Shown here piece by piece: positions 527 to 16,136 of a stretch of DNA of 32,000 nucleotides; the first letter of the stretch is position 1, and each line of letters starts with the position of its first letter. This DNA comes from Thiobacillus denitrificans DSM 12475. GTDB lineage: Bacteria; Pseudomonadota; Gammaproteobacteria; Burkholderiales; Thiobacillaceae. The translations under genes were made by a program, and so were the position numbers. The stretch lies in NCBI RefSeq assembly GCF_000376425.1, contig NZ_AQWL01000001.1, forward strand, positions 348,846 through 380,845, written 5' to 3'. Below the pieces are notes generated by a model that saw only the letters and a program-made list of their open reading frames with translations, was not told the origin of the DNA and ran no database searches.

Positions 527-2476
527 TCAGCTACCTGCCGCCGGAAGGGGAGGAATCTGCGGGGCCGGCGGGATGGATGCGTCATCGGGCACGCTCCCGT
601 CGCCGGCCGGCGGATCGGACTGGGGCGCCGCCGGCAAAGCCGTCTGCGGCGCTGCGGCCGTCGCAGGTACGAAGGGCGCCGCCAGTCCGCCACCGATAGC
701 GTTTTCGGTGCCGCCGCGGAATTCGGTCAGGGCCGGCTGGCGGGTGGCGTCGTTGCGCAGCACGCGCGGGGTGATCAGCAGCACGATCTCGGTCTTGCTG
801 CGTTCGTCGCGCTGGCTGGAGAACAGTCGCCCCACCAGCGGCAGGTCGCCCAGCCCCGGCACGCGGCTGGCGGTGCTGCGGTCCTCGTCCGAGATCAGGC
901 CGGCCAGCACCTGGGTTTCGCCGTCCTTCAGGCGCAGCGTGGTGCCGGCATTGCGGGTGCCGATCTGGTAGGTGAGGGTGCCGCTGCTGCTGCGGATCTC
1001 GCGCACGATGTTGGAGACTTCCAGCCCCATCTTGATCTGCACATCATGGTGCATCAGCACGCTGGGCTCGACGTCGAGCTTGAGTCCCACGTCCAGATAC
1101 GACACCGATTCCGATATCACGCCGGTCGAGGTGGTGTTGGAGGTGATCACCGGCACCTTGTCGCCGATATGGATCTTGGCCTTCTCGCGGTTCTTCACGC
1201 GGATGCGCGGATTGGCCAGCAGGTTGACGTCGCTGTCCTCTTTCTTCAGGTTGAGCTGCGGCGTGTTCATCGTGATGTCGGCGCCGGTGATGTGGCGTAG
1301 CTTGTCCACGGTCAGCGGCAGCGGCGACAGCGTGGTGTTGGTGGTGACCACCGGCGCGCCCACCGTGGACGAAGTCGCGGTTTGGTTGGTGACGGTGTTG
1401 AGCAGCGAAAACTGGTTGGGGTATTGCACGCCCAGGTCGAGCAGCCGACCGCGCTTGATTTCGAGCACTTCGACTTCGAGCATGACTTCCGGCTCGGCCA
1501 GATCCTGCACCGCGACAATCTTCTCCGCCAGGCGGATGGCGTCGGGCGTGTCGCGCATCACCAGCAGATTCAGCCGCTCGTCCACGTACAGATCCTTGGC
1601 CTTGATCAGGGTGCGCAGCATCGCCATGGTGGTCTTGGGATCGGCGTTGCCCAGATAGAAACTCTTCACCAGCAGCTCCTGGTACGTCTTGTTTTTTTGC
1701 GGCTGGTCGGGATAGATCAGCAGCGTGTTGGCGTTGACCACTTTCTTGGCCAGCTGGCCGGTCATCAGTAGCATGTCGATCGCGTCGGCGATCGGCGTAT
1801 TGCGCGCGAACAGCGTGGCCTTGAGATCCAGCCGGACGTCCTTGTCGAACACGAAATTGATGCCCGATTGCCGCGCGATCATGTCGAACACATTGCGCAG
1901 CGACGCATCGCGGAATTCCAGCGTGATCGGCTTGCGGGTGGCCGCCCCGAGTTCGCGCGTACTGAGTTCGTCGGGCGTGCGTAACGCCTGGATCTGCCGC
2001 AGCAGCGTCTGCGCGCCGGCATGGCCGGGCGCCTGCGCCAAAATCAGGTGCGCCACCTGTGCCGCCTCGTCGAGGCGGCCTGCCGACAGCGCCTGGTTTG
2101 CTGCCTGGAGCGTCTGTTGATGCTGGCGCATGGTCGCGAGATTGGCGAGCTGGGTATGCGCGCGCGGATTTTCGGGATGCAGCACCAGCACTTTCTGCAG
2201 CAGGGCTTCGGCGACATCGAAGCGTGTCGCGTCCAGTTCCTGTTGCGCCTGGAGCAGGAGGTCGCCAGTCAGGCGTTCGCGCTGGGTATGGTAGTAGGCC
2301 TTGAGTTCGATGTTGCCGGGCTCCTCGGCAAGCCCCGCGCGCAGACGTTCGATGCCGGCCTCGGCCTGGCCGGCGGCGAGCAGCGCGCGCCCCTCCTTGA
2401 GACCGCTGCTGGCACAGCCGGCCAGACTCAGGGCAAGCAGCGCGGCAATCGATAGGGAATGGCGAAAGGACTGCAA
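527..2476 (-). CDS. gspD: secretin (GspD/PilQ family) with lipoprotein signal and TPR-like N-terminal extension
   Basis: 649 aa. Lipobox LSLAGC. About 170 aa of helical TPR-like repeats, then an N0-like ITLEFRDASLRNVFDMIARQSGINFVFD segment. C-terminal secretin core NPRIRVKNREKAKIHIGDKVPVITS. Pro/Ala-rich tail. TTG start at 2476 preceded by AGGAG. Confidence 0.9.
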   Translation of the reverse strand: MQSFRHSLSIAALLALSLAGCASSGLKEGRALLAAGQAEAGIERLRAGLAEEPGNIELKAYYHTQRERLTGDLLLQAQQELDATRFDVAEALLQKVLVLHPENPRAHTQLANLATMRQHQQTLQAANQALSAGRLDEAAQVAHLILAQAPGHAGAQTLLRQIQALRTPDELSTRELGAATRKPITLEFRDASLRNVFDMIARQSGINFVFDKDVRLDLKATLFARNTPIADAIDMLLMTGQLAKKVVNANTLLIYPDQPQKNKTYQELLVKSFYLGNADPKTTMAMLRTLIKAKDLYVDERLNLLVMRDTPDAIRLAEKIVAVQDLAEPEVMLEVEVLEIKRGRLLDLGVQYPNQFSLLNTVTNQTATSSTVGAPVVTTNTTLSPLPLTVDKLRHITGADITMNTPQLNLKKEDSDVNLLANPRIRVKNREKAKIHIGDKVPVITSNTTSTGVISESVSYLDVGLKLDVEPSVLMHHDVQIKMGLEVSNIVREIRSSSGTLTYQIGTRNAGTTLRLKDGETQVLAGLISDEDRSTASRVPGLGDLPLVGRLFSSQRDERSKTEIVLLITPRVLRNDATRQPALTEFRGGTENAIGGGLAAPFVPATAAAPQTALPAAPQSDPPAGDGSVPDDASIPPAPQIPPLPAAGS

Positions 2477-2477
2477 C

Positions 2478-2987
2478 TCAATCTCCTGTGCGCAGGCTGC
2501 GCGTCTGGTTCAGCGGTAGATAAGTGAAATTCAGGATGCCGTCGACCACCGGTTCCAGCCGCCATACACCGTCGAGCACCTGGCCGGCGTGTACGCTCAC
2601 CGGCACCGTGCCGCGGGCCAGGTACCAGGTGGTGTGGCCGGCCTCCTGCCAGCGTCCCATGTAGCTGAATGGCAGAGCCGGCGCCTGCGGGGGCGGCAGT
2701 GGCACATAAGGGGGCGGCGGTGGCGGGGGCGGCGGCACGAACCAGGTCTGTTCGGGAAACAGGTTGGCACGGGAAAGCGCCAGCCGCGGCGCCGCTGCCT
2801 GAGGGCTGGCCGGCACGATGACGGGCCGGCCGGTGGCGCGCGGGCGCGCACGCGCCACGGGTTCGGCCAGCTCGAGTCCGGCATCGCCTGCTTCGGTGGC
2901 CGGTTCGTCGAGCGCCAGCCAGATCGACCACGCTACTGCGCCGGCCAACACGGCGAACAGAACCCGGCGCCGTTGTGTTTCGCTCAT
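2478..2987 (-). CDS. PilP/GspC-HR-like inner-membrane assembly protein, proline-rich
   Basis: 169 aa. One N-terminal TM (VLFAVLAGAVAWSIWLAL), a PPPPPPPPP linker, and a C-terminal beta-rich segment (FSYMGRWQEAGHTTWYLARG..VLDGVWRLEPV) resembling PilP/GspC HR domains. ATGA overlap with the upstream gene. Confidence 0.45.
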   Translation of the reverse strand: MSETQRRRVLFAVLAGAVAWSIWLALDEPATEAGDAGLELAEPVARARPRATGRPVIVPASPQAAAPRLALSRANLFPEQTWFVPPPPPPPPPYVPLPPPQAPALPFSYMGRWQEAGHTTWYLARGTVPVSVHAGQVLDGVWRLEPVVDGILNFTYLPLNQTRSLRTGD

Positions 2988-3511
2988 GGCGTCGCCTCCA
3001 TGAACAGGCTCAGGTGCAACTCGGCCTGCAGCTCGCCGGATTCGATGCGATCACGCTTCAGCTTCAGCTCGTCCAGCGTCAGGTTGGGTTGGCGTTCCAG
3101 CGCCGCCGCGATGAAAGCATGCAGTGCCGGGTAGGAAGTCACAACCGGTAGCACCAGCTGCCAGCGTTGCAGCGGGGTGGCCGCCAGCGGCGACACGCTG
3201 TATTGCCCGCGCGGCAGGTCGAATCCGTGCGCGCGCGCCAGCCGTTCCAGTTCGCCGATCTGCTGTGCCGCCGCTCCTGCCGGCGGCAGCTCGGCCAGCG
3301 GATTGAATGGCACCGGTGCTGGCGCGGCCGGCCGCGCGGTGGTCACGTGCAGCGCGGCCAGGCGTTCGTGCTGAGCGGCGACCGCCCGCTGCACCGAGGA
3401 AACCTGGACGCCCTGCAGCAGCAGCGCGCCCGCCAGCAGTCCCAGCCCGGCCAGGCCGCCGGCGCCGAGGCGGCGCGCCCATTGTCGCAGTTGCCAGATC
3501 AGATTTGTCAT
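2984..3511 (-). CDS. PilO/GspM-like assembly protein
   Basis: 175 aa with an N-terminal TM (GLAGLGLLAGALLL), a coiled segment and an alpha/beta C-terminal domain. Its position and size match PilO/GspM. ATGA overlaps on both sides. Confidence 0.5.
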   Translation of the reverse strand: MTNLIWQLRQWARRLGAGGLAGLGLLAGALLLQGVQVSSVQRAVAAQHERLAALHVTTARPAAPAPVPFNPLAELPPAGAAAQQIGELERLARAHGFDLPRGQYSVSPLAATPLQRWQLVLPVVTSYPALHAFIAAALERQPNLTLDELKLKRDRIESGELQAELHLSLFMEATP

Positions 3512-4026
3512 GCGCCCAGCTCCACCAGGATAGTGATGCGCACCGGATGCTGTCCGGCGTCGGCCTGCGCCTCGTGCTGGGTCAGCGTGGCACGCTTCAC
3601 CCCCGGCTGCTGTTGCAGCGCGTCGATGAAGGCGACGGCATCGGCAAGCTGCCGCGCTTCGGCCACCAGCTTGAGCTGCGACTTGGCCTGCACGGCGTCG
3701 AGCGAGAGCAGCGCGATCCTGGCGCTGCGCGCCGTGGCCAGTGCGTCGAACGCCGGCTGCCAGGAATGGCCGAGCTGTGCCGCGATGCGTGCCTGGGCTG
3801 CGTGTGCCGCACTGTCGGCGCGCGTGGCGGGTTGTGCCGTCGCGCGCGGCTGGGCCCGTTCGAGCGCGGCGATCCGCAGCGCCAGCCCGGTCTCGGCAGC
3901 GCGCGCCGCCTGCAGATTGCTCCAGGCCCAGCCCAGTGCCGCCATGCCGGCCAGCGCCAGCGCAATGCTCAGCCTGGCGGGACGCGAGGAGCGCGCATGG
4001 AAATCGAAATCGAGCCGCATTGTCAT
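3508..4026 (-). CDS. PilN-like assembly protein
   Basis: The track ORF 3508-4413 overlaps the upstream gene. The internal ATG at 4026 (MTMRLDFDFH...) forms an ATGA overlap with that gene's stop at 4023. This gives 172 aa with a TM (LSIALALAGMAALGWAW), a coiled coil and a PilN-type C-terminal domain. Confidence 0.5.
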   Translation of the reverse strand: MTMRLDFDFHARSSRPARLSIALALAGMAALGWAWSNLQAARAAETGLALRIAALERAQPRATAQPATRADSAAHAAQARIAAQLGHSWQPAFDALATARSARIALLSLDAVQAKSQLKLVAEARQLADAVAFIDALQQQPGVKRATLTQHEAQADAGQHPVRITILVELGA

Positions 4027-4781
4027 ATTCCCGCCAACGCCAGTGCGCCGCGGAGTTGCGTGTCGTGCGGCAGCACCTGCCAGCGGGTACCGGCGGAATC
4101 CGGCGCTGCCACCGTGCCGGTGCCCAGCGCCTGAATCCAGGTCGCAGCGGGGAGGGGCTGCGCCATCAGCGCGGCCTCGCGTTCGATCAGCTCGGGCAGT
4201 GTCGCGGCCCAGCCGTCGTCGACCGGCTGGCCGGCGACGTGTCGCCAGATGCCGTTTGCCGAACCGAACAGGCTCAGCCAGCCCGGCTCGACCAGCGCCC
4301 ACCAGCCAGCCAGCCGCTGCGGCAGGCGACGCGCAGCGACGCTGGCGAGCGGGCGGATCGTCACATCGCGAAAACCATGGCGAGCCAGCAGCGCATCCAG
4401 TTGCCGGACCCACGCCGCATCCATCGCGGCGCCGAGCAGGCCATGTTGCGGTGGCTGGCTGAGCACCTGCACGTTCCAGTGCTCGGCCTCGTCGCCATAG
4501 ATGTCGCGCAGGCTGGCCGTCACCAGAGCGCGCTCCTCGGCAGGCGCGAGCGCCTTGCCGGGCGGCGGCGTCAGCACATGGCGAACGAAGTGCTGCGACA
4601 CCACCACCTCGGCGCGGCGGCTGCGCCAGGCGGCATCGGCGAGGGCATCGTCGAGCAGCGGCAGCAGGCTCGCCGCGCCGCGTTCATGGCTGGCGAGCAC
4701 GCGGCTGTCGCGTGCGCGCAGCAGCGCGGCTTCGCCGGGAATGAGCGCGATGCGCAAGGAATCAGCCGACCAGCGTGACAC
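4023..4781 (-). CDS. GspL-cytoplasmic/PilM-like assembly protein (no TM)
   Basis: 252 aa, soluble. Pattern VVVSQHFVRHVLTPPPGKALAPAEERALVTASL is typical of GspL/PilM N-terminal regions. GTG start overlaps the gspE 3' end by 20 nt. Confidence 0.4.
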   Translation of the reverse strand: MSRWSADSLRIALIPGEAALLRARDSRVLASHERGAASLLPLLDDALADAAWRSRRAEVVVSQHFVRHVLTPPPGKALAPAEERALVTASLRDIYGDEAEHWNVQVLSQPPQHGLLGAAMDAAWVRQLDALLARHGFRDVTIRPLASVAARRLPQRLAGWWALVEPGWLSLFGSANGIWRHVAGQPVDDGWAATLPELIEREAALMAQPLPAATWIQALGTGTVAAPDSAGTRWQVLPHDTQLRGALALAGI

Positions 4782-6438
4782 GGTTGATCTCCTCCAGGGT
4801 GGTGTCGCCCGACTTCACCAGCGCGAGCGCCGCCTCGCGCAGGCTGCGGGTGCCGCCGCGCGCGGCGGCTTCCTTGATCTGGCCAATCGGCGCGCGCGCC
4901 ACGATCAGTTCGCGTAGTTCGTCAGTCAGCAGCAGTATTTCGGCGACGGCGCGGCGGCCCTTGTAGCCACTGCCGCGGCAGTGGCCGCAGCCGCTGCCCT
5001 GGCGAAATTCGTAGTCGCGGGTCTTCTCGAGCGTCAGGCCCGACAGTTCGAGCAGGTCGTCGGCGGGCACGACCGGCGCGGCGCAATGCGGGCAGTTCAC
5101 CCGCAGCAGACGCTGCGCCACGATGCCATTGAGCGCCGATACGAAGCTGTAGGGGTCGACGCCCATGTGAATGAAGCGGCCGATGACGTCGAACACGTTG
5201 TTGGCGTGCACGGTGGTGAACACCAAGTGGCCGGTGAGCGCCGACTGCACCGCGATCTGCGCGGTGTCGGCGTCGCGGATCTCGCCGACCATGATCTTGT
5301 CGGGGTCGTGGCGCAGAATCGAGCGCAGGCCGCGCGCGAACGTCAGTCCCTTCTTCTCGTTGACCGGAATCTGCAGCACGCCTGGCAGCTGGTATTCGAC
5401 CGGGTCCTCGATGGTGACGATCTTGTCGCGGCCGTGGTTGATCTCGGAAATCGCCGCGTACAGCGTGGTGGTCTTGCCCGAGCCGGTCGGCCCGGTCACC
5501 AGCAGCATGCCGTAGGGCTCGGCTGCCAGCTTGCGGATGCGCGCCAGCGTCGCCCCGGCGTAGCCGAGGCCTTCCAGCGTGAGGCCCGAGAGTTCTTCCG
5601 ACAGCGCCTGCCGGTCCAGGATCCGCAGCACCGCATCTTCGCCGAATACGCTCGGCATGATCGACACCCGCACGTCGACCTCGCGCCCCTGCATCGACAC
5701 CTTGAAGCGGCCGTCCTGCGGCACCCGGCGCTCGGCGATGTCGAGTTCGGCCATCACCTTGATGCGCGACACCGCCTGTTCGGCAACTTCGACTCCCGCG
5801 GCGTGGGCGATATGCGACAGCACGCCGTCGATGCGGTATTTCACCGTCAGGCCGCGCGGATCGGTTTCCATGTGGATGTCGGAGGCGCCGGCTTTCAGCG
5901 CGTCGTACAGCGTCGAGCGCACCAGCCGCACTACCGGGCTGGCGTCCTCGGCGATGCTGGCGAACGACAGGGTTTCGGCGCCGGAGTCCGGCGCCGCCTG
6001 CGTGCTGCCGCCGCCCACGCCCTCCATCGCGCGCAGGCCCTCCTCGTGGCGCGCCAGCAGTGCCGCCAGATCGGCGGGGTGGGCGAGCCCGGTCTTGAAC
6101 GGCGTTCCCAGCACATGCCCGGCATAGGCCCGGCTGGCACTGTCCCAAGGATCGGTCAGCAGCAGCCAGGGTTGTCCGTCACCATCGCGTGCGGCCAGGC
6201 AATGCCGGCGCGCGGCCTCGTTGAAGCCGAGTTTGCCGAAGTCAGCGGTCAGTGCGTTCAGCCCGGCCATGTCGAAGGCGGGCTGGCGGCAATGGGCGGC
6301 CAGCAGATGCAGCGTGGCGTCGGCGTCGAGGCCGAACTGCTCCTGCAGCCTCAGTATCACGGACTGGCCGGCAGCGTGCGCTTCCTGGCGCAGGCTGGCC
6401 AGGGCGGCGGCGGTGAGGGCGGGTTGCGGTGCGTTCAC
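4762..6438 (-). CDS. gspE: type II secretion ATPase GspE
   Basis: Walker A GPTGSGKTT, Asp/His boxes, tetracysteine CPHC...CGHC. The track ORF (to 7026) overlaps gspF. GTG at 6438 (VNAPQP...) makes a GTGA overlap with the gspF stop, giving 558 aa. Confidence 0.9.
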   Translation of the reverse strand: MNAPQPALTAAALASLRQEAHAAGQSVILRLQEQFGLDADATLHLLAAHCRQPAFDMAGLNALTADFGKLGFNEAARRHCLAARDGDGQPWLLLTDPWDSASRAYAGHVLGTPFKTGLAHPADLAALLARHEEGLRAMEGVGGGSTQAAPDSGAETLSFASIAEDASPVVRLVRSTLYDALKAGASDIHMETDPRGLTVKYRIDGVLSHIAHAAGVEVAEQAVSRIKVMAELDIAERRVPQDGRFKVSMQGREVDVRVSIMPSVFGEDAVLRILDRQALSEELSGLTLEGLGYAGATLARIRKLAAEPYGMLLVTGPTGSGKTTTLYAAISEINHGRDKIVTIEDPVEYQLPGVLQIPVNEKKGLTFARGLRSILRHDPDKIMVGEIRDADTAQIAVQSALTGHLVFTTVHANNVFDVIGRFIHMGVDPYSFVSALNGIVAQRLLRVNCPHCAAPVVPADDLLELSGLTLEKTRDYEFRQGSGCGHCRGSGYKGRRAVAEILLLTDELRELIVARAPIGQIKEAAARGGTRSLREAALALVKSGDTTLEEINRVTLVG

Positions 6439-7619
6439 TGGATCGATCCCGCCAGGTCGAAGATCGGCATATAGAGCAGCACCACGATCAGGCCGATGGT
6501 GAGGCCGATGAACACCATCAGCAGCGGCTCGAACAGGCGGGTGAACCAGTCCACCCAGCGCGCCATTTCCTCGTCGTGAAAAATGGCGATGCGCTCCATC
6601 ATCTCGCCCATGCGGCCACTTTTCTCGCCGACGCGCAGCAGTCGCGCGGCCACCGGCGTGGTCAGCTTGCCGCGGGCGAACGCCGCCGAGATGGTTTCGC
6701 CGCGACGCATCGTCTCCATCGCCGTCGCCGCGCCGCCGCGCAGGTGCGCCGAAAGCAGCCCCGATACCATGCCGAGCGCCTGGACGACGGGAATGCCGCC
6801 GGCGAGCAGCATGCCGAGGCTGCGGTAGAAGCGGGCCAGTTCGAAGGTGCGCAGATGCTCGCCGATCGCCGGGAGTCGCCAGGCCAGGCGGGTGAGCGCG
6901 GCGCGGGTGGCGGGCTGCGACAGCACGGCGACCAGGCTGGCGACCAGACCCAGCGCGCCCAGCGCAACCCAGCCGCCGTGCGCTCCGACCGCCTCGCCCC
7001 AGGCCAGCAGCATGCGCGACATCCACGGCAGGTCGCGTCCGGCGTCGGCATACACGGTGGCGAAGCGCGGCACCACGTAGCCGAGCAGAAAACCGATCAC
7101 CAGCGTACCGACGCCGATCAGCAGCATCGGGTAAATCGACGCCGACAGCACTTTCTTCTTTACCGTGTCGATCTGGTTCTGATAGCCGAGGTAACGGGCC
7201 AGCGCGGGCGAGAGGTCGCCGGTGCTCTCGGCCGCGCGCACTGTAGCGGTATACAGGGGCGGGAATGCATCGCCCTGCGTGGCGAGTGCGGCCGAAAACG
7301 GGCGGCCTTCGCGCATGGTGGCAAGCAGGCGCTCGATCAGCTGGCGCGATTCGGGGCGGCTTTCCTTCTCGGCCAGGGTTTCCAGCGCCTCGGTCAGGGT
7401 CAGTCCGGCATCCAGCAGCGCGATCAGTTCCTGCGTGAACAGCAGCAGCGGAAAGCGTATGCGCCGTGCCGCCAGCCAGCCCGCGCGCTCGGCGACGATG
7501 GACAGCACCTGCGCACCTTCGCGCTGCAGCCGCGCAGTGACCTCGGCCTCGTCGAGCGCTTCCAGCGTCAGCGCCGTGACTCCCGCACCCGGGCGCAAGG
7601 CTTTTACCCGGTAGCGCAT
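6435..7619 (-). CDS. gspF: type II secretion inner-membrane platform protein GspF
   Basis: 394 aa with two GspF repeats and three TM segments (e.g. SIYPMLLIGVGTLVIGFLLGYVVP; EPLLMVFIGLTIGLIVVLLYMPIF). Confidence 0.9.
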   Translation of the reverse strand: MRYRVKALRPGAGVTALTLEALDEAEVTARLQREGAQVLSIVAERAGWLAARRIRFPLLLFTQELIALLDAGLTLTEALETLAEKESRPESRQLIERLLATMREGRPFSAALATQGDAFPPLYTATVRAAESTGDLSPALARYLGYQNQIDTVKKKVLSASIYPMLLIGVGTLVIGFLLGYVVPRFATVYADAGRDLPWMSRMLLAWGEAVGAHGGWVALGALGLVASLVAVLSQPATRAALTRLAWRLPAIGEHLRTFELARFYRSLGMLLAGGIPVVQALGMVSGLLSAHLRGGAATAMETMRRGETISAAFARGKLTTPVAARLLRVGEKSGRMGEMMERIAIFHDEEMARWVDWFTRLFEPLLMVFIGLTIGLIVVLLYMPIFDLAGSIQ

Positions 7620-8054
7620 TTACCAGTTGCCGATGTCGGCGCCGTCGCCGCTGCCGCCGGGTGCGCCATCGCGGCCAAACGAGAAGATGTCCACCTCGCC
7701 GCGCTCGCCGGGCATGCGGTATTGATACGGCTTGCCCCAGGGATCGTTCGGCACCGCTTTCTTCAGATAGGGGCCGTCCCAGCGCGCTTCGTCGGCAGGC
7801 TTGGTGTTCAGCGCGGCCAGGCCCTGCTCGATGCCGGGGTAATGACCGGTGTCGATGCGGTATTGGTCGAGCGCCTTTTCCAGCGCGCCGATCTGGGCCT
7901 GCGCTGTCTTGACTTCGGACTTGCCGACCTGGGAGAAATACTTGGGTGCCACATAACCTGCCAGCAGCCCCAGAATCACCAGCACCACCAGCAGTTCGAG
8001 CAGGGTGAAGCCGCCGCTGCGGCCGGGGCCGGATGTCGCGATGAATGGAAACAC
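7620..8054 (-). CDS. gspG: major pseudopilin GspG
   Basis: GG|FTLLELLVVLVILGLLAGYVAPKY, then GspG hallmarks (LDQYRIDTGHYP, WDGPYLKK, PNDPWGKPYQY, SFGRDGAPGG...DIGNW). I place the start at GTG 8054, preceded by AGAGG at 7 nt, rather than the track's ATG 8177. Confidence 0.85.
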   Translation of the reverse strand: MFPFIATSGPGRSGGFTLLELLVVLVILGLLAGYVAPKYFSQVGKSEVKTAQAQIGALEKALDQYRIDTGHYPGIEQGLAALNTKPADEARWDGPYLKKAVPNDPWGKPYQYRMPGERGEVDIFSFGRDGAPGGSGDGADIGNW

Positions 8055-8671
8055 AATCTGACCTCTGTGTGGTTGTCCGCCGTGGAATGGATGGATTGCC
8101 TGAGATGCGTGCCGGCGTCCCCGGACGACGGGCAGGGGAGGGGCAACTGTCGTGGAGTTGAATTGAAACAGCCGCATGTTACCGGCGTGTTAAAAGTGGG
8201 AATCAGGCTCGCCAGGCCGTCTTGCCTCGCCGGAAGCAAAGCGGTCGTTGTCTTGAATTGCGTGGGATATCGGGGTGCCGGGCAACGGGGTACCGGGACG
8301 CATCGCCGTCCGATGCCGCACCGGAGCATGGAAGAATCGCGCTGTCGCTGAAAGCGGCGGCCCGCCCGAAAACGGGATGCCAGGCGCCAGTCGAATATTG
8401 ACGGACAAAATGATCACCCATGCAGTCTCCCCCTGCCGATGCAACGATCACGATTTGTTATCCGCAAATTGCCGGCGTGCCGGGCCGCTGGCTTATTTGA
8501 TTTATGGCTGTGAACTTATCACGCGGATTTTCAAGCGGTCAATATGTTCTGATTTTTAATGGGTATTGGCTTGCTCTGGCCGTCTATCGTCATTTGCGTA
8601 GAACCAGGGAAATAAACGGCGCTTGTGCCTGGCGAACGGTCGGAACCGAATGCGCTGTAATTCGCATGCGA

Positions 8672-8798: not shown

Positions 8799-9233
8799 AT
8801 GTCGAATGGGGTGAGTTCGTTCGCGCAAGGCGTGCGAGAGCTGTTTGTAGTCGCGACGGTATTTTCTTTGTTTACCGTAATTTTTTACGGAGCAAACGCC
8901 GCTGCAAACAATCAAGGATTCAAAGGGTGGTCTTGGTATATAAATCAAGCACTTTTCGACAGTGCAGAAGAAGCCTGTAAGGCCTACCCTCCCTACAATT
9001 ACACGTACTCCCCTAATACAAACTGTTGTTATTTTGAGTTTACTGGAGTGTTGGCCAACCCGGCCTATCCCCAGTACAAGGACTGTCAATTTGCGATTGT
9101 CAACCTGACTGATCCGTTATACAACGATCCATCCAAAAGCAGACTTACGGTTTATCCATACTTCGACACTGTCTCTGGTAGAACGCAGGTAATTCGTGCC
9201 CGACAACGCCCAATCCAATTACGATCGGCATAG
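8799..9233 (+). CDS. signal-peptide N-terminal segment of the Rhs protein, out of frame with the core (probable frameshift)
   Basis: ATG preceded by GGGGAGGGAAG. Sec-like signal (LFVVATVFSLFTVIFYG-ANA|AANN). Four Cys. The ORF terminates at 9233, inside the region where the rhs frame is already open (from 9182). Confidence 0.55.
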   Translation: MSNGVSSFAQGVRELFVVATVFSLFTVIFYGANAAANNQGFKGWSWYINQALFDSAEEACKAYPPYNYTYSPNTNCCYFEFTGVLANPAYPQYKDCQFAIVNLTDPLYNDPSKSRLTVYPYFDTVSGRTQVIRARQRPIQLRSA

Positions 9234-12200
9234 GCAATAAGTTTCTAGCTGAGACCGATAGTAATACCAGCACACAAACGCTGACTCTGCGACGCTATTA
9301 CAACAGCGTATCGCCTGTGACTACTAGCTTTGGAGTGAGTTGGCGGCACTCATATAAACGTCAAATTTTCTTGAGTACGTCAACGGCGGTGACAGTGAGA
9401 CGTCCTGACGGAAAGTCACTTAACTTTCAACTGAGCGGCAGCACTTGGATTGGTGACGCCGACATTGCCGATACCCTAGTCCAACTTTCCAGCTCCGCTG
9501 GCTGGCGCTACACCATGGCCGCCGACGACTCCGTCGAACTCTACGATGCGAGTGGTAAGCTGCAATCACTCACCGACCGCGCCGGCCGCACCGAAACTCT
9601 AACTTACAGCGACGGCACCGCGGGTACTAATGGCGGCTACGTCCTCGACGCCTTTGGCAGCCCGACCCTGGCCGTTCTTTCCGTCGGCCAATTGATTCGC
9701 GTCACCGACGCTACCGGCAACGTCCTCAATTTCGGTTACGACGCCTTGTCCCGCATTATCAAGCTGACCGATCCTTCCGGCGGAATCTACGCTTACGTTT
9801 ACGACACAAACGGCAATCTCGTCTCCGTCCAGTATCCCGACGGCAAGAGCAAGACCTACCTATACGAGAACCCTACTTTCCCGCATGCCCTAACCGGCAT
9901 CGTTGACGAGAATGGCGACCGCTACGCCACCTACCGCTACGACAGCCAGGGACGCGCCTACGACGAAGACCACGGCGGCTCGGTCGATCACTACAATCTC
10001 GCCTACACCACGGACGCCAATGGCAACCCCGTCTCGACCACCGTCACCGACCCCATGGGTACCCAGCGCACCTACAACTTCACTACCATATTGGGTGCCG
10101 TCAAGAGCACCGGCGTCTCCCAGCCCGGCGGCTCCGGCTGCAGCGCTGCGTCCTCCGCCATAGCCTACGACGCCAATGGCAACGTCGCCAGTCGCACTGA
10201 CTTCAACGGCCACACTACCTGCCACGCCTACGACCTGACGCGCAACCTCGAAATCGCCCGCGTCGAAGGCCTGGCATCCAGCACCAACTGCCCGAGTAAC
10301 CTCGCTACCTACACCCCCACCGCCAATAGCGTCGAGCGCAAGATACTCACCCAGTGGGACAGCCGCTTCCGCCTGCCCGTCAAGATCACAGAGGCCGGTC
10401 GCGAAACCAGCACCGTCTACGACAGCCGTGGCAACCCTACCATCCGCAGCATCAAGGACCTCGCCAGCGGCCAGACTCGCACCTGGAGCACCAGCTACAC
10501 CTACCATGCCAGCGTTCCCGGCGTCCTAGTCCAGAAAATTGAAGACGGCCCGCGCACCGACGTCAGCGATCTCACCACCACAGACTACTACGCCCCCGAC
10601 GAGAACTGCACCGGCGATCCCCTGGGCTGCCGTGGCCAGCTCAAGCAGATCACCAATGCTCTCGGCCACATCACAACCTATGACGAATACGACGCCAACG
10701 GCCGTGCCCTCCGGATCACCGACCCCAACGGCCTCGTCAGCACTTATACCTATAGTCCGCGCGGCTGGCTCGAAACCCGCAGTGTCGGCGGTGAGCTGAC
10801 CCGCTTCGACTACGACTACGTCGGCCAATTGATCAAACTCGCCCGTCCTGACGGCAGCTACGTCAGCTTCGAATACGACCCCGCCCACCACCTCACCACC
10901 ATTGTCGACCAGGACGGCGGCCGCCTCACTTACACCTTCGACGCCATGGGCAACCGCACTCATGAAGCGATCACCGGCCTCGGCGGCAGCACCGTCTACT
11001 ACGCTCACAGCCGCACCTTCGACGCCTTGGACCGCCTGTGGCAGGACATCGGCGCCGCCAACCAGACCGTCACCTACCAGTACGATGCCCAGGGAAACCT
11101 GAAACAGATCGACGGCGCCCGCACCGACGTCGCCGACGTCACCAGCCACGGCTACGGCGCCCTCGACCGCCTCATCCAGACGCTGAACGCCGACGGCGGC
11201 GTCGAGCAATACAAACCCAACACCCTCGGCCAGGTCACAAACGTTGTCGATCCGGCCAACCAGGCCACCGTCTACACCCGCAACGCCTTCGGCGACATCG
11301 TCCAGACCCAGAGCGCGGGCACCGGCACCACCACCCGCACCTTCGACGGAGCCGGCAACACCAAGACCGAGACCGACGCGCGGAACGTGACCGCCACCTA
11401 TAGCTACGACGCCTTGAACCGGCTTGTCCAGAAACAGAGCAGCCAGAGCGGTGCTCCGGTCTACCAGTATTTCTACGACGACTGCGGCAAAGGCTTCCTG
11501 TGCTGGGTACAGCGCAACGGCAGCTTCCACCTTTACTTCAGCTACGACCTACACGGCCGGCAGACCTACCAGCTATCCGCCATCGACAACTGGTACTTCG
11601 GTGTGTACAGCTACCGCCCCGGCGGACAGATCGAGACTGTGACTTATCCCAGCGGCCGCAGCGTCACCTACGGCTACGACGCCCAGGGGCGTGTCAGCCA
11701 GGTGAAGACCCGCAAGAACGCGGCCGACTCCGAGACCGTGCTGGCAAGCAACTTCAGCTATATCTACCCTTTCACCGGCCCGCAGAGCTTTAGCTACGGC
11801 AACGGCAGCGGGTTCTATCTAAGACGCGACCAGGACTATCGCCCTTCGTACCATTTCGACGGCCCGAGCTACAAACTCTATGGCCACGACCTCGCCGGCA
11901 ACGTTGCCAGCATCGTGGACATCAACAATACCCTGCTGACTTACGCCTATGACAGCACCGGCCGTCTCGTCTCCGCCATTGACAGCGCCGCCAACAGCTT
12001 CGGCAGCCTTGCCTGGGCTTACGACAAGAATGGCAACCGCCAGAGCGAGACCCGCAACGCCGGCACCATGCCCTACGTCTACAGCCCGCCCAACTGGCTG
12101 TATCAGGCCGGCAGCGATACGCGAACCAGAACCGCCTACGGCAACACCGCATCCACCAGCACTGCCAGCTTCACTTACGATGGCTACAACCGGCTTGCCA

Positions 12201-13012
12201 CCAGCCAGACCGCAAGCGAAACCACCACCTACAGCTACAACGCCCTCGGCCAGCGCATCAGGAAGATCAACCAGAACGGACTTGCCACCGCTTTCCACTA
12301 CGGCCCGAACGGCGAACTGCTGTACGAGCAGGACCAGGCCGGCAACACCAAGGCCTACGTCTGGCTCGACGGAAGACCATTGGCAAGAATCGACAACAAC
12401 GCACAGATTTATTACTACCACGTCGATCATCTGGGGACGCCGCAAGCAATGACGAACAGTATGGGAACCACTGTGTGGAAGGCGAACTACGAGCCGTTCG
12501 GCAAGGCGACAGTGACGACCAGCACTGTCGAGAATAACCTGAGACTGCCAGGGCAGTACTTCGATCGGGAGACGAACCTGCATTACAACTACGCAAGGGA
12601 TTACGATCCGGGGACGGGCCGGTATATCGAGGCCGATCCGATCGGGCTCAGTGGCGGCATTAATCTCTACACCTATGCGGAGGGGAATCCCGTCACGAAG
12701 ACAGACCGGTTAGGATTATTTTGTGGGTCGGGTTGGAACGAGGTATTTGTTCCCGATTTATTTCCGGGCGGCGTCGATTTTTCCTCTGCATGTCATAAGC
12801 ACGATATTTGTTACAGTAAGTGCGGTACGCAAAAAAACTCATGTGACCAGAATCTACTGTCGGATGCGCTCGCAGAATGTGAAAAATCCCCTCTCAACTC
12901 CCTTGTCCGAAATCAATGCATGATGACTGCCACTTGGTACTGGGAAGCCGTAGGCCGGTGGGGACAAGGTGCTTTCGACAACGCGCAACGTAGTTGCAGC
13001 TGTAAACAGTGA
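9182..13012 (+). CDS. RHS/YD-repeat toxin (core plus C-terminal toxin domain)
   Basis: The frame is open from 9182 and already encodes Rhs N-terminal motifs (NPITIGIGNKFLAETD, LTLRRYYNS, FGVSWRHSY). There is no ATG/GTG/TTG before GTG 9317, the track start. Dozens of YD repeats (YDxxGR/N), then YYYHVDHLGTP and PGQYFDRETNLHYNYARDYDPGTGRYIEADPIGL-x18-DRLGL, then a 97-aa CT. Confidence 0.9.
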   Translation, partial: NAGNSCPTTPNPITIGIGNKFLAETDSNTSTQTLTLRRYYNSVSPVTTSFGVSWRHSYKRQIFLSTSTAVTVRRPDGKSLNFQLSGSTWIGDADIADTLVQLSSSAGWRYTMAADDSVELYDASGKLQSLTDRAGRTETLTYSDGTAGTNGGYVLDAFGSPTLAVLSVGQLIRVTDATGNVLNFGYDALSRIIKLTDPSGGIYAYVYDTNGNLVSVQYPDGKSKTYLYENPTFPHALTGIVDENGDRYATYRYDSQGRAYDEDHGGSVDHYNLAYTTDANGNPVSTTVTDPMGTQRTYNFTTILGAVKSTGVSQPGGSGCSAASSAIAYDANGNVASRTDFNGHTTCHAYDLTRNLEIARVEGLASSTNCPSNLATYTPTANSVERKILTQWDSRFRLPVKITEAGRETSTVYDSRGNPTIRSIKDLASGQTRTWSTSYTYHASVPGVLVQKIEDGPRTDVSDLTTTDYYAPDENCTGDPLGCRGQLKQITNALGHITTYDEYDANGRALRITDPNGLVSTYTYSPRGWLETRSVGGELTRFDYDYVGQLIKLARPDGSYVSFEYDPAHHLTTIVDQDGGRLTYTFDAMGNRTHEAITGLGGSTVYYAHSRTFDALDRLWQDIGAANQTVTYQYDAQGNLKQIDGARTDVADVTSHGYGALDRLIQTLNADGGVEQYKPNTLGQVTNVVDPANQATVYTRNAFGDIVQTQSAGTGTTTRTFDGAGNTKTETDARNVTATYSYDALNRLVQKQSSQSGAPVYQYFYDDCGKGFLCWVQRNGSFHLYFSYDLHGRQTYQLSAIDNWYFGVYSYRPGGQIETVTYPSGRSVTYGYDAQGRVSQVKTRKNAADSETVLASNFSYIYPFTGPQSFSYGNGSGFYLRRDQDYRPSYHFDGPSYKLYGHDLAGNVASIVDINNTLLTYAYDSTGRLVSAIDSAANSFGSLAWAYDKNGNRQSETRNAGTMPYVYSPPNWLYQAGSDTRTRTAYGNTASTSTASFTYDGYNRLATSQTASETTTYSYNALGQRIRKINQNGLATAFHYGPNGELLYEQDQAGNTKAYVWLDGRPLARIDNNAQIYYYHVDHLGTPQAMTNSMGTTVWKANYEPFGKATVTTSTVENNLRLPGQYFDRETNLHYNYARDYDPGTGRYIEADPIGLSGGINLYTYAEGNPVTKTDRLGLFCGSGWNEVFVPDLFPGGVDFSSACHKHDICYSKCGTQKNSCDQNLLSDALAECEKSPLNSLVRNQCMMTATWYWEAVGRWGQGAFDNAQRSCSCKQ
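12719..13009 (+). other. CT1 toxin domain of main Rhs, phospholipase A2-like motifs
   Basis: Begins right after DRLGL. Carries FCGSGW and ACHKHDICYSKC, has 9 Cys in 97 aa and ends RSCSCKQ. GC drops sharply here. Confidence 0.6.
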
Positions 13013-13019
13013 GAGAAAT

Positions 13020-13316
13020 ATGGAAGAGAAAACAGTAGGAGTTCTAGTCTTCACAGCGCTAACATTGCTGAACAGTATAGGTTGCCATTATTTTATTCGT
13101 TCCTATTTCTTAGCCAGCATGTTTGCTGCTGGCCTAACGACAATCATCGGTCAATTAGCTTTCAGAATCCATTATGGGTACTGGGATCCATTCTTAATGA
13201 TTTCATTGGTGACAATGAGTTTGCTTGCATTGTTGCTTTCCCTCGCCATAGGCCTCCCATTTTATCTAAGTCGGCGCTGGCGCCGACGCCCCTACAAATC
13301 AAATGGGCCGAGCTGA
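13020..13316 (+). CDS. putative immunity protein 1 (small 3-TM membrane protein)
   Basis: ATG at 13020, 8 nt after the rhs stop, preceded by GAGAGA. 98 aa with three hydrophobic helices. Low GC. Assigned from its position directly 3' of the toxin domain. Confidence 0.6.
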   Translation: MEEKTVGVLVFTALTLLNSIGCHYFIRSYFLASMFAAGLTTIIGQLAFRIHYGYWDPFLMISLVTMSLLALLLSLAIGLPFYLSRRWRRRPYKSNGPS

Positions 13317-14007
13317 CGTCTGGCTCGACGGCCGCCCGCTCGCCTGGATCGATAACGACGCGCAGATTTATTACTATCACGTCGATCACCTGGGGACGCC
13401 GTGGGCGATGACGAACCAAGCAGGAACGGTCGTCTGGAAGGCGAACTACGAACCCTTCGGCAAGGCGACGGTGACGATCAATACGGTCGAGAATAACCCC
13501 AGACTTCTTGGGCAGTACTTCGACCGGGAGACCGGGATGCAGTACAACTACTTTAGGGGTTATGACCCGACAACGGGCCGGTATATCGAGGCCGATCCGA
13601 TTGGGTTGCAAGGGGGCATGAATCTCTATGCCTATGTTGAAGGAAATCTGCTGAGTTACGTGGATCCCAATGGCCTCACAAAAGTCCATGGCAATTGGTG
13701 TGGCCCTGACTGGACTGGTGGCCACGCTGAGCAGTACACACCAGTGAGTGCCAAGTTATATTCCCCCCCTGTTGATGGCTTAGATACGGCCTGTCAATCA
13801 CATGACATTTGCTATTACCAATGCCGTAAGGCTCATCCCTGTGATCCTCCTAAAAGATCTACCTGCTTTAGGTCTTGCGATGGGCAATTAACAATAGATG
13901 CGTCTTGGGGAGAGAGCATTATGTCATCCGTAATTGTGCGAACAATGCAAAGAAATGGCATTAGGGACCCAGGGCCAAACAGTACAAATTGTTCCTGCGG
14001 AGAATAA
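13303..14007 (+). CDS. orphan Rhs C-terminal module 2 (core tail plus PLA2-like CT2)
   Basis: Homology to main rhs (from YVWLDGRPLARIDNNAQIYYYHVDHLGTP) starts about 13315, at the immunity-1 stop. DPIGL-x18-DPNGL, then CT2 (13678-14004) with NWCGPDWTGG and ACQSHDICYYQC. 9 Cys, ends NCSCGE. Confidence 0.8.
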   Translation: MGRADVWLDGRPLAWIDNDAQIYYYHVDHLGTPWAMTNQAGTVVWKANYEPFGKATVTINTVENNPRLLGQYFDRETGMQYNYFRGYDPTTGRYIEADPIGLQGGMNLYAYVEGNLLSYVDPNGLTKVHGNWCGPDWTGGHAEQYTPVSAKLYSPPVDGLDTACQSHDICYYQCRKAHPCDPPKRSTCFRSCDGQLTIDASWGESIMSSVIVRTMQRNGIRDPGPNSTNCSCGE

Positions 14008-14050
14008 CCACAGAAATATTTCCACTAGTGCATCGAAAGGGATTTAAAAC

Positions 14051-14329
14051 ATGCTTTTGTCTATAGGCATCACAGCTTTCGCCTCAATACTGACAGCATT
14101 TTTATGTTGGAGATTAAAAAGTCTAGCTTTACGGATTGCGATAGTTGCGCTGATCTCATTTAGTGTTTCTTATGTACTTTACTGGTTGCCGGTTTGGCGA
14201 GGAGCAACGGATGACCAATATTCAACATGGGCTCCGATGGTTATTGGTATTTGCTTTGTGGCGGGACTCATTGGTGGCGGGATAGGACTCTTGGTCGTAG
14301 CTTGGAAAAAAGCGAGGCAAATACCATAG
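14051..14329 (+). CDS. putative immunity protein 2 (small 3-TM membrane protein)
   Basis: 92 aa, AAAGGGA RBS, three hydrophobic helices, low GC, immediately 3' of CT2. Confidence 0.6.
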   Translation: MLLSIGITAFASILTAFLCWRLKSLALRIAIVALISFSVSYVLYWLPVWRGATDDQYSTWAPMVIGICFVAGLIGGGIGLLVVAWKKARQIP

Positions 14330-14330
14330 C

Positions 14331-14944
14331 GGCCACATCGCCACCAACGGCTACGACGTCGAAGGGCGCATCAGTCAGAAAAGACAAATGAAAGACAAAT
14401 GGGGTCACGATTATGCAACAAGTACCACCGCGAGCGAGACGACGACCTACACCTACAATGCCCAGGGTCAGCGCATCAAGAAGATCAACCAGAACGGGCT
14501 CGCCACCAGCTTCCACTACGGCCCCGACGGCGAACTACTGTACGAGCAGGACTAGGTGGGCAACAACAAGGTCTACGTCTGGCTCGACGGACGATCGCTG
14601 GCGCGGATCGACAACAACCAGCAGGTCTACTACTACCACGTCGATCGCCCCAGCACGCCGTGGGCGATGACGGACCACAAGCAGGGACGATCGTCTGGAA
14701 GACGAACTATGAGCCGTTCGGTAAGGCGACGGTGACGACCAGCACTGTCGAGAATAACCTGAGGCTGCCAGGGCAGTACTTCGATCGGGAGACGAACCTG
14801 CATTACAACTACGCAAGGGATTACGATCCGACAGCGGGCCGGTATATCGAGGCCGATCCGATTGGGCTTGAAGGGGGCCTAAATGTTTACAGCTATGTGA
14901 ATGGCAATCCGTTAAACAGGATTGATCCGAAGGGACTGGACTAA
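14331..14944 (+). pseudogene. orphan Rhs core tail 3, degraded
   Basis: The Rhs-like frame starts at 14331 (NGYDVEGRISQ...TASETTTYTYNAQGQRIKKINQNGLATSFHYGPDGELLYEQD). In-frame TAG at 14553-14555. A 1-nt deletion near 14686 shifts the frame. HVDHLGTP is changed to HVDRPSTP. The tail ends DPIGL-x18-DPKGLD followed by TAA 14942-14944. Confidence 0.8.
14381..14402. repeat. 11-nt tandem duplication at an orphan-module junction
   Basis: AAGACAAATGA AAGACAAATGG. Confidence 0.5.
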
Positions 14945-15235
14945 GTGCCACCGCTGGTTCCGCCTGCAGCTAATGGCAACTATTCAACCGATTTTACAAA
15001 GCAAGATGGTGTTTGCAGCGCTCCCGCAGGTGTTCTAAATGGCAACTCTTGTACGCGCAAATGCTGTGAAAACCACGATAATTGCTACACCAAATACCAC
15101 TGCAATGCATCATCATGGATTAGCAATTTACTGGGTTACGGCTTTGCATGTCAGCAATGCAATGCTGAGGCAGAAAAATGCGTCATCGAAAATCTTGAAA
15201 AACATGACTGTGATAGCGATAAGTGTAAGAAGTGA
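14945..15235 (+). CDS. CT3, PLA2-like toxin ORF separated from its Rhs tail by an in-frame stop
   Basis: GTG directly after the TAA, in the same frame as the Rhs tail. 96 aa, 11 Cys, KCCENHDNCYTKYHC (compare the sPLA2 active site CCxxHDxCY). Confidence 0.6.
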   Translation: MPPLVPPAANGNYSTDFTKQDGVCSAPAGVLNGNSCTRKCCENHDNCYTKYHCNASSWISNLLGYGFACQQCNAEAEKCVIENLEKHDCDSDKCKK

Positions 15236-15246
15236 GGGCTCATCTC

Positions 15247-15615
15247 ATGAATAAACCTATTGGGACGCTATTCGCACTAGCAATTGCTTTTTTTTTTATT
15301 GCTTTAGGCATATGGCACATTTTGGGGGGTGCGGCGCCACTTGGTGGTAGTCAGGGAGACACATCTTTTTTTCCGGTATGGTATCCCGTTATGATTCTTT
15401 GCGCGGGATTGCTTGGCTTTTTCTTCCCATCTGCCGCTTGGCTAGTAGGGCCGATGATGCTGGCGACACAAAGCGTGTTGGACGTTTGGTTCTCTCCTTA
15501 TGAAGCAAATCTTTGGCCAATTGGCATGGCTATACAATTCGTCTTGGCGATTCCCCTGGTTCTTTCTGGACTTGGCGGTCGATTCCTCACAAAAATAATA
15601 AAACGGGCGGATTAA
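15247..15615 (+). CDS. putative immunity protein 3 (small 4-TM membrane protein)
   Basis: ATG 15247 preceded by GAGGG at 8 nt (the track start GTG 15232 is less likely). 122 aa, about four hydrophobic helices, low GC. Confidence 0.6.
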   Translation: MNKPIGTLFALAIAFFFIALGIWHILGGAAPLGGSQGDTSFFPVWYPVMILCAGLLGFFFPSAAWLVGPMMLATQSVLDVWFSPYEANLWPIGMAIQFVLAIPLVLSGLGGRFLTKIIKRAD

Positions 15616-15668: not shown

Positions 15669-16136
15669 TACAACTACTTCAGGGATTACGATCCGGGGAC
15701 GGGCAGGTACCTGGAATTCGACTTGATTGGGTTGCGCGGCGGGCTCAACGGGTACTTATACGCGAACGCCGATCCGCTGACCTATACCGATCCTTTTGGA
15801 CTTGCGCCACCCACTATTTGCAATGGCCAGGATTGTGTAAATCCGCCATACGATCCGACACCCAGCGGTCTAAGACCAAGCCCGCAGCCGCGCCCTGATG
15901 GAAAGCCGCCCCGTGAATCGGGCCAGCCTGCACGCTACGATATTTGTCAGGATTTTGATCTGTTGAAAAAGCCGTGCAAAACTTGTGTTGACCTTGCATG
16001 TAATGTCTCGGCGGGCACACGCCAACTCTGCTGTGACGTTGATTTCCGCGACTGTTTTGCCAACGCGATCGACAATCCAGGAAAGCTGGCTGAATGCAAT
16101 GCGAAGCGGGCAGCCTGCGCGTTTAGGGGACGCTAA
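15666..16136 (+). CDS. orphan Rhs C-terminal module 4 (46-aa core tail plus Cys-rich CT4 of unknown activity)
   Basis: QYNYFRDYDPGTGRYLEFDLIGL-x18-DPFGL, then a 110-aa CT (15804-16133) with 11 Cys, no His, and a Pro-rich linker. No ATG or GTG is available; the track uses TTG 15723. Confidence 0.65.
   Translation, partial: QYNYFRDYDPGTGRYLEFDLIGLRGGLNGYLYANADPLTYTDPFGLAPPTICNGQDCVNPPYDPTPSGLRPSPQPRPDGKPPRESGQPARYDICQDFDLLKKPCKTCVDLACNVSAGTRQLCCDVDFRDCFANAIDNPGKLAECNAKRAACAFRGR

Follow-up and report, generated by a model that had tools for sequence, protein, structure and literature searches.

Rhs toxin tips with a secreted phospholipase A2 signature in a polymorphic-toxin locus of Thiobacillus denitrificans

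What do the tips of the Rhs locus in a 32-kb stretch of Thiobacillus denitrificans DSM 12475 encode, and do all of those that resemble phospholipases A2 belong to that superfamily? The stretch (32,000 nucleotides of contig NZ_AQWL01000001.1, positions 348,846 to 380,845; hereafter the window) carries on its plus strand, between 8.8 and 17.1 kb, a series of open reading frames (ORFs) whose listing and translations identify an Rhs locus. GyrA encoded in the window is identical to WP_018076564.1, in keeping with T. denitrificans as the source. RHS repeats, the PF03527 core, a DPxGL-type boundary, a variable tip, a small downstream ORF and repeated 3'-core fragments, the features that define Rhs/YD polymorphic toxins, are all present. 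The locus is an Rhs polymorphic-toxin locus, with one full-length Rhs gene, three displaced orphan cassettes of tip plus presumed immunity gene, and a shell remnant. An initial annotation had proposed that three Rhs C-terminal toxins encoded here (CT1, CT2 and CT3) carry the signature of secreted phospholipase A2 (sPLA2); this main claim is correct, and its novelty is modest. We consider it likely that CT1 and CT2 are diverged paralogues within the sPLA2 superfamily, that CT3 represents a separate, large tip family, and that the partners of these tips are membrane immunity proteins.

12719..13012, plus strand: CT1, sPLA2-like tip, 97 residues, 9 Cys (Pfam and PDB matches)
13678..14007, plus strand: CT2, sPLA2-like tip, 109 residues, 9 Cys (family alignment and profile matches)
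14945..15235, plus strand: CT3 tip, 96 residues, 11 Cys, with CCENHDNCY and CQQCN; Rhs-tip family without a Pfam model

CT1 and CT2 are homologous to secreted phospholipases A2

Translation of the window yields FCGSGW...ACHKHDICYSKC...CSC for CT1 (12719-13009), NWCGPDWTGG...ACQSHDICYYQC...CSC for CT2 (13678-14004) and KCCENHDNCYTKYHC for CT3 (14945-15232), reproducing the strings and coordinates quoted in the initial annotation together with its counts of 9 Cys in CT1 and in CT2; CT3 has 11. The resemblance by eye of CCENHDNCY in CT3 to the pancreatic-type string CCQTHDNCY also held, with 7 of 9 positions equal. In the six-frame translation of the window the pattern [AC]CxxHDxCY appears three times and no more, at CT1, CT2 and CT3, and because it was absent from all 300 first-order Markov simulations of the window, its presence at the tips is not due to chance.

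CT1 contains the motifs FCGSGW, ACHKHDICY and SCDQN. Searched against Pfam, it matched PLA2G12 (E 2.4e-7, 31.3 bits; curated cut-off 34) and the prokaryotic family Phospholip_A2_3 (PF09056; E 1.6e-6, 29.1 bits; curated cut-off 29.4), and phmmer against the PDB returned bacterial and fungal secreted phospholipases A2 exclusively (7ygk, 8k1w and 4aup, E 0.006-0.04). The alignment with these solved enzymes covers the helix that holds ACHKHDICY and the next one, which bears an Asp and where SCDQN pairs with the Asp of RIDDN in a solved bacterial enzyme, so that both the His-Asp pair and the downstream Asp helix are present. These data support CT1 as an sPLA2-superfamily domain closest to group XII and to the prokaryotic and fungal types.

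CT2 sits on a 125-residue core fragment in a single ORF (13303-14007) and carries the calcium loop with an insertion (GNWCGPDWTGG), D..D.ACxxHDxCY and FxxCDxxL. Eight homologues of 44-53% identity were recovered, and in the nine sequences of the family GNWCGPDWTGG, D33, D36, ACxxHDxCY and FxxCDxxL, including CD68, are invariant. As a single sequence CT2 matched Pfam PLA2_1 (E 1.5e-3) and PLA2_4 (E 2.5e-3), both below the cut-off, and the family profile matched group I snake and pancreatic phospholipases A2 in the PDB (E 1.5e-4). A weak tblastn match of CT2 led to a Methylobacterium plasmid gene annotated as a phospholipase A2 family protein (WP_026605148.1), which itself passes the Pfam PLA2_1 cut-off. 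Alignment of the CT2 family to this protein (hhalign probability 96.6%, E 5.6e-10) takes in the calcium loop as well as the HD motif and CxCD; CT2 has an insertion of 12 residues in the loop. CT2 is therewith supported as an sPLA2-superfamily domain whose closest relatives appear to be bacterial PLA2_1-like proteins. CT1 aligned to the CT2 family with an hhalign probability of 93% (E 3e-7) and equal Cys spacing, in agreement with the earlier suggestion that the two are diverged paralogues.

A widespread CT3 family with a phospholipase A2-like active-site layout

A word-index search for homologues of CT3 gave no matches. At E<=1e-3 an exhaustive HMMER search recovered 252 cluster representatives (clusters defined at 50% identity), and 82 of these also satisfied E<=1e-10. 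In all representatives the domain is the C terminus of its carrier (61-1818 residues), a DPxGL-type boundary lies at most 70 residues upstream in 89 of the 150 listed representatives, and 5 of the 6 long carriers that were scanned contain RHS repeats. The family spans Binatia, Geobacteraceae, Nitrospirae, Sulfuricaulis, Lysobacteraceae and Thiobacillus. Neither Pfam nor NCBIfam has a model of its own for it, and NCBIfam has none for any tip or immunity ORF of the array.

Conserved residues of the family comprise NGN, QD, C24, C36, C40 C41 xx H44 D45 x C47 Y48, GC53N, SSW, C69 xx C72 N73 and C79; those of the active site and the Cys spacing are invariant or at least 90% conserved in an alignment of 51 sequences. 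C40, C41, H44, D45, C47 and Y48, together with C72-x6-C79, are spaced exactly as C44, C45, H48, D49, C51, Y52 and C98-C105 of pancreatic phospholipase A2, in which disulfides 44-105 and 51-98 staple two antiparallel helices. In the AlphaFold2 (AF2) model built from the 51 sequences (mean pLDDT, the predicted local distance difference test score, 86.9), helix 35-51 carries C36-Y48 and helix 68-83 carries C69-C79. Weak matches to PLA2G12 or PLA2_1 were found in 8 of the 51 family members (best E 1.3e-4), every other Pfam match being a singleton; CT3 itself matched PLA2_1 with an E of 0.15. The family profile retrieved from the PDB bee-venom phospholipase A2 alone, at a non-significant E of 4-5, with Asn73 aligned to Asp64 of that enzyme, and 11 of the 27 weak Foldseek matches of the model in BFVD, none significant, were parvovirus VP1 proteins, which bear a phospholipase A2.

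We conclude that CT3 is a real and widespread toxin tip with a phospholipase A2-like active-site layout. Because the Asp of the second helix is replaced by Asn and the CGxG calcium loop is absent, we treat it as a candidate member of the superfamily. The sPLA2 reading of the initial annotation stood for CT1 and CT2, by profile and alignment evidence, but for CT3 extended to the signature and no further, as neither profile nor fold searches with it gave a significant phospholipase A2 match. An apparent homology between the CT2 and CT3 families (hhalign probability 87%) shrank, once shared pre-toxin Rhs residues had been trimmed, to the 13-residue HD motif, and is for that reason not counted as homology. 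The lipocone/Wnt toxin superfamily was also considered as a home for CT3, and a limited text search of the paper on it showed nothing bearing on these tips.

Small membrane proteins are encoded downstream of the tips

A small hydrophobic ORF lies 0-44 nucleotides 3' of every tip (13020-13316, 14051-14329, 15247-15615 and 16136-16423). These small multi-pass membrane ORFs probably encode immunity proteins. The first three are listed here; a 99.2%-identical sister locus (L005) served for comparison.

13020..13316, plus strand: Imm1, presumed CT1 immunity protein, 98 residues with three hydrophobic segments, beginning 8 nucleotides past the CT1 stop codon
14051..14329, plus strand: Imm2, presumed CT2 immunity protein, a 92-residue membrane ORF with hydrophobic segments, intact in L005
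15247..15615, plus strand: Imm3, presumed CT3 immunity protein, a polytopic membrane ORF of about 122 residues, with an alternative GTG start at 15232

CT1 and CT3 are each found with a related membrane ORF in other loci. The only close match to CT1 in the word-index search was an orphan from metagenomes (P0001, 85% identical), which in loci L002-L004 is followed by an 88-residue membrane ORF 65% identical to Imm1; since both partners recur together, CT1 and Imm1 form a conserved two-gene module. In metagenomic contigs the CT1-like orphan cassette is immediately preceded by an IS200/IS605-type Y1 transposase gene (L001 998-1681; L002 44-727), a hint that cassettes of this kind are able to move with insertion sequences. 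Imm3 shows co-linear similarity to membrane ORFs that follow CT3-family tips (pairwise E 4e-8 for the Geobacteraceae locus L011 and 5e-10 for P0044). Five genome loci with such tips, retrieved using a 10-sequence alignment, revealed partners of two unrelated kinds, either a polytopic membrane protein of about 120 residues (L011 3315-3674) or a lipoprotein of 144-149 residues (Binatia L010 589-1023; Nitrospirae L012 771-1220). CT2 homologues elsewhere precede membrane ORFs of 91-117 residues that belong to another family than Imm2. Within the Imm3 ORF a poly-T run (15280-15295) differs in length by 3 bp between the window and L005, in frame, amounting to one Phe more or less.

Architecture of the array and apparent route of export

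The remaining parts of the main gene and the core fragments that precede CT2 and CT3 are as follows.

8799..9233, plus strand: N-terminal part of the main Rhs protein, with a signal-peptide-like start (MSNGVSSFAQGVRELFVVATVFSLFTVIFYGANA followed by AANNQ) and a Cys-containing region of about 100 residues
9317..12718, plus strand: Rhs/YD-repeat shell of the main gene (Pfam RHS_repeat E 1.5e-74, 21 stretches)
13303..13677, plus strand: orphan 2, Rhs core-end fragment of 125 residues, 79% identical in DNA to main-gene 12357-12656 (family D1)
14388..14944, plus strand: orphan 3, decayed Rhs core-end fragment with two frameshifts (families D1 and D4), in the same state in L005

The main ORF (9317-13012) encodes 1231 residues, its reading frame being open from about 9170. 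Its shell contains the RHS core (PF03527, E 5e-16) and a partial DUF6531, both by Pfam, and terminates in the core and the boundary ...DPIGLSGGINLYTYAEGNPVTKTDRLGL, after which the 97-residue CT1 follows. Three shorter units lie 3' of the main gene, each opening with a 3' Rhs shell fragment and ending in a different tip (CT2, CT3 or CT4). The orphan shell fragments are 64-80% identical in DNA to main-gene 12196-12656, and the repeat families D1-D5 across the array share 64-90% identity. GC content is about 63% in the shell and falls to about 50% over the tips, as is usual in exchangeable cassettes.

The tips begin directly after a core-end motif, CT1 with F after ...DRLGL, CT2 with T after ...DPNGL and CT3 after ...DPKGLD. 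CT1 alone is joined to a full-length Rhs, and CT3 is cut off from its core fragment by an in-frame TAA (14942-14944) immediately behind ...DPKGLD.

The initial annotation had compared the tips with effectors of type VI secretion systems (T6SS), a framing that the surroundings do not support, for no PAAR, VgrG or other T6SS gene was found in the Rhs gene or its neighbours in the 32 kb, and the Rhs start resembles a Sec signal peptide (signal-peptide-like and intact in L005). The main Rhs protein thus appears, from its predicted signal peptide, to be a Sec-type, T6SS-independent carrier. The six full-length carriers of CT3-family tips likewise have signal-peptide-like starts, contain RHS, Kelch or Ig-like domains and lack PAAR. 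Directly upstream of the Rhs locus, and divergent from it, is an operon resembling type II secretion system (T2SS) or pilus operons (527-8177, minus strand). Its genes specify a secretin that bears TPR and STN domains, the protein T2SSM_b, an ATPase resembling GspE, GspF and a pseudopilin resembling GspG.

All four tips are rich in Cys, and the ORF downstream of each encodes a membrane protein. Membrane or periplasmic partners, together with 9-11 Cys per tip, point to action in the envelope. Some disulfide-containing effectors need DsbA of the target cell (Mariano et al. 2018, PMC5792426).

Comparison with a sister locus

Near 9180 (9170-9190) the window reads GGTAGAAC and L005 GGTAAGAAC, a 1-bp deletion in the window that parts the signal-peptide N terminus from the Rhs body; in L005 the N terminus runs on as one frame (...FDTVSGKNAGNSCPTTPNPITIGIGNKF...). 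The orphan-3 frameshifts and the TAA are common to both loci. L005 has frameshifts of its own at positions equivalent to 10507 (Rhs body) and 13763 (CT2) of the window. Counts of synonymous and non-synonymous differences between the two were uninformative, the differences being too few. Since the genomes differ in single-base indels, some at homopolymers, assembly error may account for part of this variation.

Proposed mechanism and alternative readings

The scheme that follows is inferred as regards the enzymatic reaction, the need for calcium, the place where the tips act, the way they are delivered and the protection given by the downstream ORFs. An N-terminal signal peptide would direct the Rhs protein, which encloses the toxin in its YD shell, to export by Sec, and autoproteolysis after the ...GL boundary would free the tip. 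On reaching the envelope of a neighbouring Gram-negative cell, the tip would form four or five disulfides in the oxidising periplasm and cleave the sn-2 ester of membrane phospholipids, the His serving as general base and the neighbouring Asp binding calcium; the lysophospholipid and fatty acid products would permeabilise the membrane. The small polytopic inner-membrane protein encoded 3' of each tip would shield the producer at the membrane surface. The 64-80% identity of the orphans to the 3' shell of the main gene would permit tip exchange by recombination, and the orphan immunity genes may guard against neighbours bearing those tips.

Several observations weigh against the reading we prefer. 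Both Pfam matches of CT1, though significant by E-value, fall slightly short of the curated cut-offs. The AF2 model of CT2 has a pLDDT of only 69, and its best eight Foldseek matches, all of them phospholipases A2, are non-significant (E of about 1). Imm2 has no detectable homologue beside other CT2-family tips, no secretion partner can be named for the Rhs protein, and part of the locus may be non-functional because of the frameshift near 9180 and the position of CT3 behind a stop codon and frameshifts. For CT3 the contrary evidence is more extensive. The family consensus has no Pfam match. Foldseek of the confident model against the PDB gave no phospholipase A2, with three irrelevant weak matches as its entire output, and hhalign of the family to the CT2 family, WP_026605148.1 and bee-venom phospholipase A2 was confined to the HD motif (13-18 residues, 13-73% probability). 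The (Y/W)CGxG calcium loop is absent from the family, whose upstream conserved residues are instead NGN...QDxxC(S/T)xPA, and the second-helix Asp (equivalent to Asp99 or Asp64) is Asn73, kept as Asn in at least 90% of members. NGN, QD and GCNxSSW are additional invariant motifs that phospholipases A2 lack. These findings would also be expected if the CT3 family were not phospholipases at all but had a distinct disulfide-rich fold, with the CCxxHDxCY-like string arising by convergence and another target in the envelope (pore formation, lipid II or peptidoglycan precursors, or metal-dependent hydrolysis, for example), leaving CT1 and CT2 as the only phospholipases A2. We hold this to be a serious alternative, to which we assign slightly less than an even chance; against it stand the ten Cys, His, Asp and Tyr positions spaced as in the pancreatic enzyme on two predicted long helices, the recurrence of weak phospholipase A2 matches in Pfam, the PDB and BFVD where other matches are scattered, and membrane or lipoprotein partners that suit a lipid or envelope target. 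The bolder proposal, that the family is an unrecognised sPLA2 clade with His-Asp plus Asn, a non-canonical calcium site or none, Sec-exported T6SS-independent Rhs/YD carriers and immunity provided by polytopic membrane proteins or lipoproteins, is possible, though we think it rather unlikely.

Two further readings concern the locus as a whole. It could be a decaying relic in which the main gene is a pseudogene, the orphans are silent and no tip is made in this strain. The 1-bp deletion relative to L005, the frameshifts and in-frame stop of orphan 3, a premature stop in Imm4 and the different frameshifts of L005 in the Rhs body and CT2 all fit decay, but each of two genomes that are 99.2% identical has its own single-base indels, the ORFs of CT1, Imm1, CT2 (as it stands in the window), Imm2 and Imm3 are unbroken, and silence is in any event the normal condition of stored orphan cassettes, so that we regard a wholly inactive locus as doubtful. 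The tips might also be aimed at eukaryotes such as amoebae, fungi or grazers, in the manner of the sPLA2 toxins of animals and fungi, the downstream ORFs then not being immunity proteins. sPLA2 toxins are widespread in eukaryote-directed venoms, close fungal and oomycete relatives were noted by Zhang et al. (PMC3482391), and the Rhs protein is apparently Sec-exported and extracellular, with CT3-family carriers displaying Kelch and Ig-like surface domains and no PAAR. However, a small membrane ORF directly after each tip, in pairs kept across distant taxa, is a hallmark of interbacterial toxin-immunity modules, orphan arrays are typical of interbacterial Rhs loci, and the sole Rhs-linked phospholipase A2 to have been tested is antibacterial in the periplasm (PMC8263058). 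A eukaryotic target is accordingly improbable in our judgement, and antibacterial tips with membrane immunity partners remain the preferred reading.

Relation to known toxins and phospholipases

It had been left open in the initial annotation whether an Rhs toxin family with the phospholipase A2 fold was already catalogued. Such a family, Tox-PLA2, with the phospholipase A2 fold (PDB 1kp4), was listed on RHS proteins in 2012 (Zhang, de Souza, Anantharaman, Iyer and Aravind, PMC3482391), with no immunity family named, and in 2021 the PLA2_like (cd00618) tip of the Rhs effector Nte1 of Neisseria cinerea was reported to be toxic to Escherichia coli only if targeted to the periplasm and to be neutralised by Nti1, the product of the gene downstream (Custodio et al., PMC8263058). 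The Rhs-phospholipase A2 toxin class is thus known from both listing and experiment, and by sequence comparison CT1 and CT2 are new diverged members of it.

CT1 suits the description of Tox-PLA2 in PMC3482391, namely a phospholipase A2-fold tip on RHS proteins with Sec-type ("T2SS") export, Streptomyces and fungal kin and CxxHxxxY. The Thiobacillus array differs from that catalogue in that a small polytopic membrane ORF accompanies each tip, and may go beyond it with the CT2 family, which has a PLA2_1-like calcium loop plus insertion, and the CT3 family, both below every curated cut-off in Pfam and NCBIfam. With Nte1 and Nti1 it shares an Rhs protein with a C-terminal phospholipase A2-type tip and a neutralising (Nti1) or presumed immunity product encoded downstream. 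Nte1, however, has an N-terminal PAAR and a plasmid T6SS locus, whereas the Thiobacillus Rhs protein has a signal-peptide-like start and no T6SS gene within the 32 kb. A tblastn search of PLSDB with CT1, CT2 and CT3 returned no Neisseria record, the presence of the N. cinerea 346T plasmid in that database being unconfirmed.

Among free enzymes the comparison is with sPLA2 groups XII, XIII and XIV (PF06951, PF09056; 7ygk, 8k1w, 4aup) and bacterial PLA2_1-like proteins, which have in common with CT1 and CT2 a Cys-flanked His-Asp helix, a second Asp helix, an upstream glycine-rich or Asp-containing calcium site and, by prediction for the tips, a small, disulfide-rich helical domain. Unlike these free secreted enzymes, CT1 and CT2 are tips of an Rhs shell, and the calcium loop of CT2 is longer by 12 residues than that of the Methylobacterium protein. 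A regular-expression search for GxSxG and HxKxxxxD found neither motif in any of the four tips; the Tle lipases are, as the initial annotation stated, of different folds. Tle1-4 are GxSxG alpha/beta hydrolases, and Tle5 is a phospholipase D with HxKxxxxD. The tips resemble these T6SS effectors, which have cognate immunity, in being proposed interbacterial toxins that degrade membrane phospholipids from the periplasm, and they differ from Tle1-5 in fold and chemistry. Tli immunity proteins are known as soluble periplasmic proteins or lipoproteins, not as polytopic membrane proteins.

The points of interest of the locus are the stacking of tips, the polytopic membrane partners, the apparent Sec-type carrier and the size of a CT3 family without a Pfam or NCBIfam model. 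Three diverged tips with a phospholipase A2 signature lie in one array, each with a candidate membrane-embedded immunity protein, and the literature searched yielded no enzymology, structure or immunity mechanism for Rhs-phospholipase A2 toxins. The array may therefore offer a compact system for asking how a Sec-type Rhs protein delivers a disulfide-rich lipase and how the producer shields its own membrane from it. If CT3 proves to be a true phospholipase A2, the sPLA2 superfamily would be extended; if it does not, the family would define a new toxin fold of the envelope. Were the bolder proposal above correct, the sPLA2 classification would gain a new bacterial group, and the family would provide a first case of a phospholipase toxin countered by membrane-embedded immunity.

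CT4 and the 3' end of the array

The last cassette and the end of the array consist of three elements.

15723..16136, plus strand: orphan 4, a short core-end remnant plus CT4 (15804-16133; 110 residues, 11 Cys, no HD motif)
16136..16423, plus strand: Imm4, membrane ORF after CT4, 95 residues, with a premature stop relative to L005 (115 residues)
16551..17123, plus strand: Rhs shell remnant closing the array, an internally deleted copy of main-gene segments (families D3 and D5)

CT4 had no match in Pfam, NCBIfam or the PDB. We considered it as a fourth phospholipase A2 and rejected it, there being neither an HD motif nor profile similarity (hhalign to the CT3 family, 1%). The remnant joins copies of 10892-11191 (D3, 90% identity) and 11926-12070 (D5, 84%), and has the appearance of a scar left by an old recombination or deletion. 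The mechanically called ORF of 692 residues over the catalase gene (17120-19198) carries at its N terminus a long extension, rich in Arg, that is implausible. The call for this gene in L005 is 487 residues, with a separate BON-domain gene before it (window 17217-17531).

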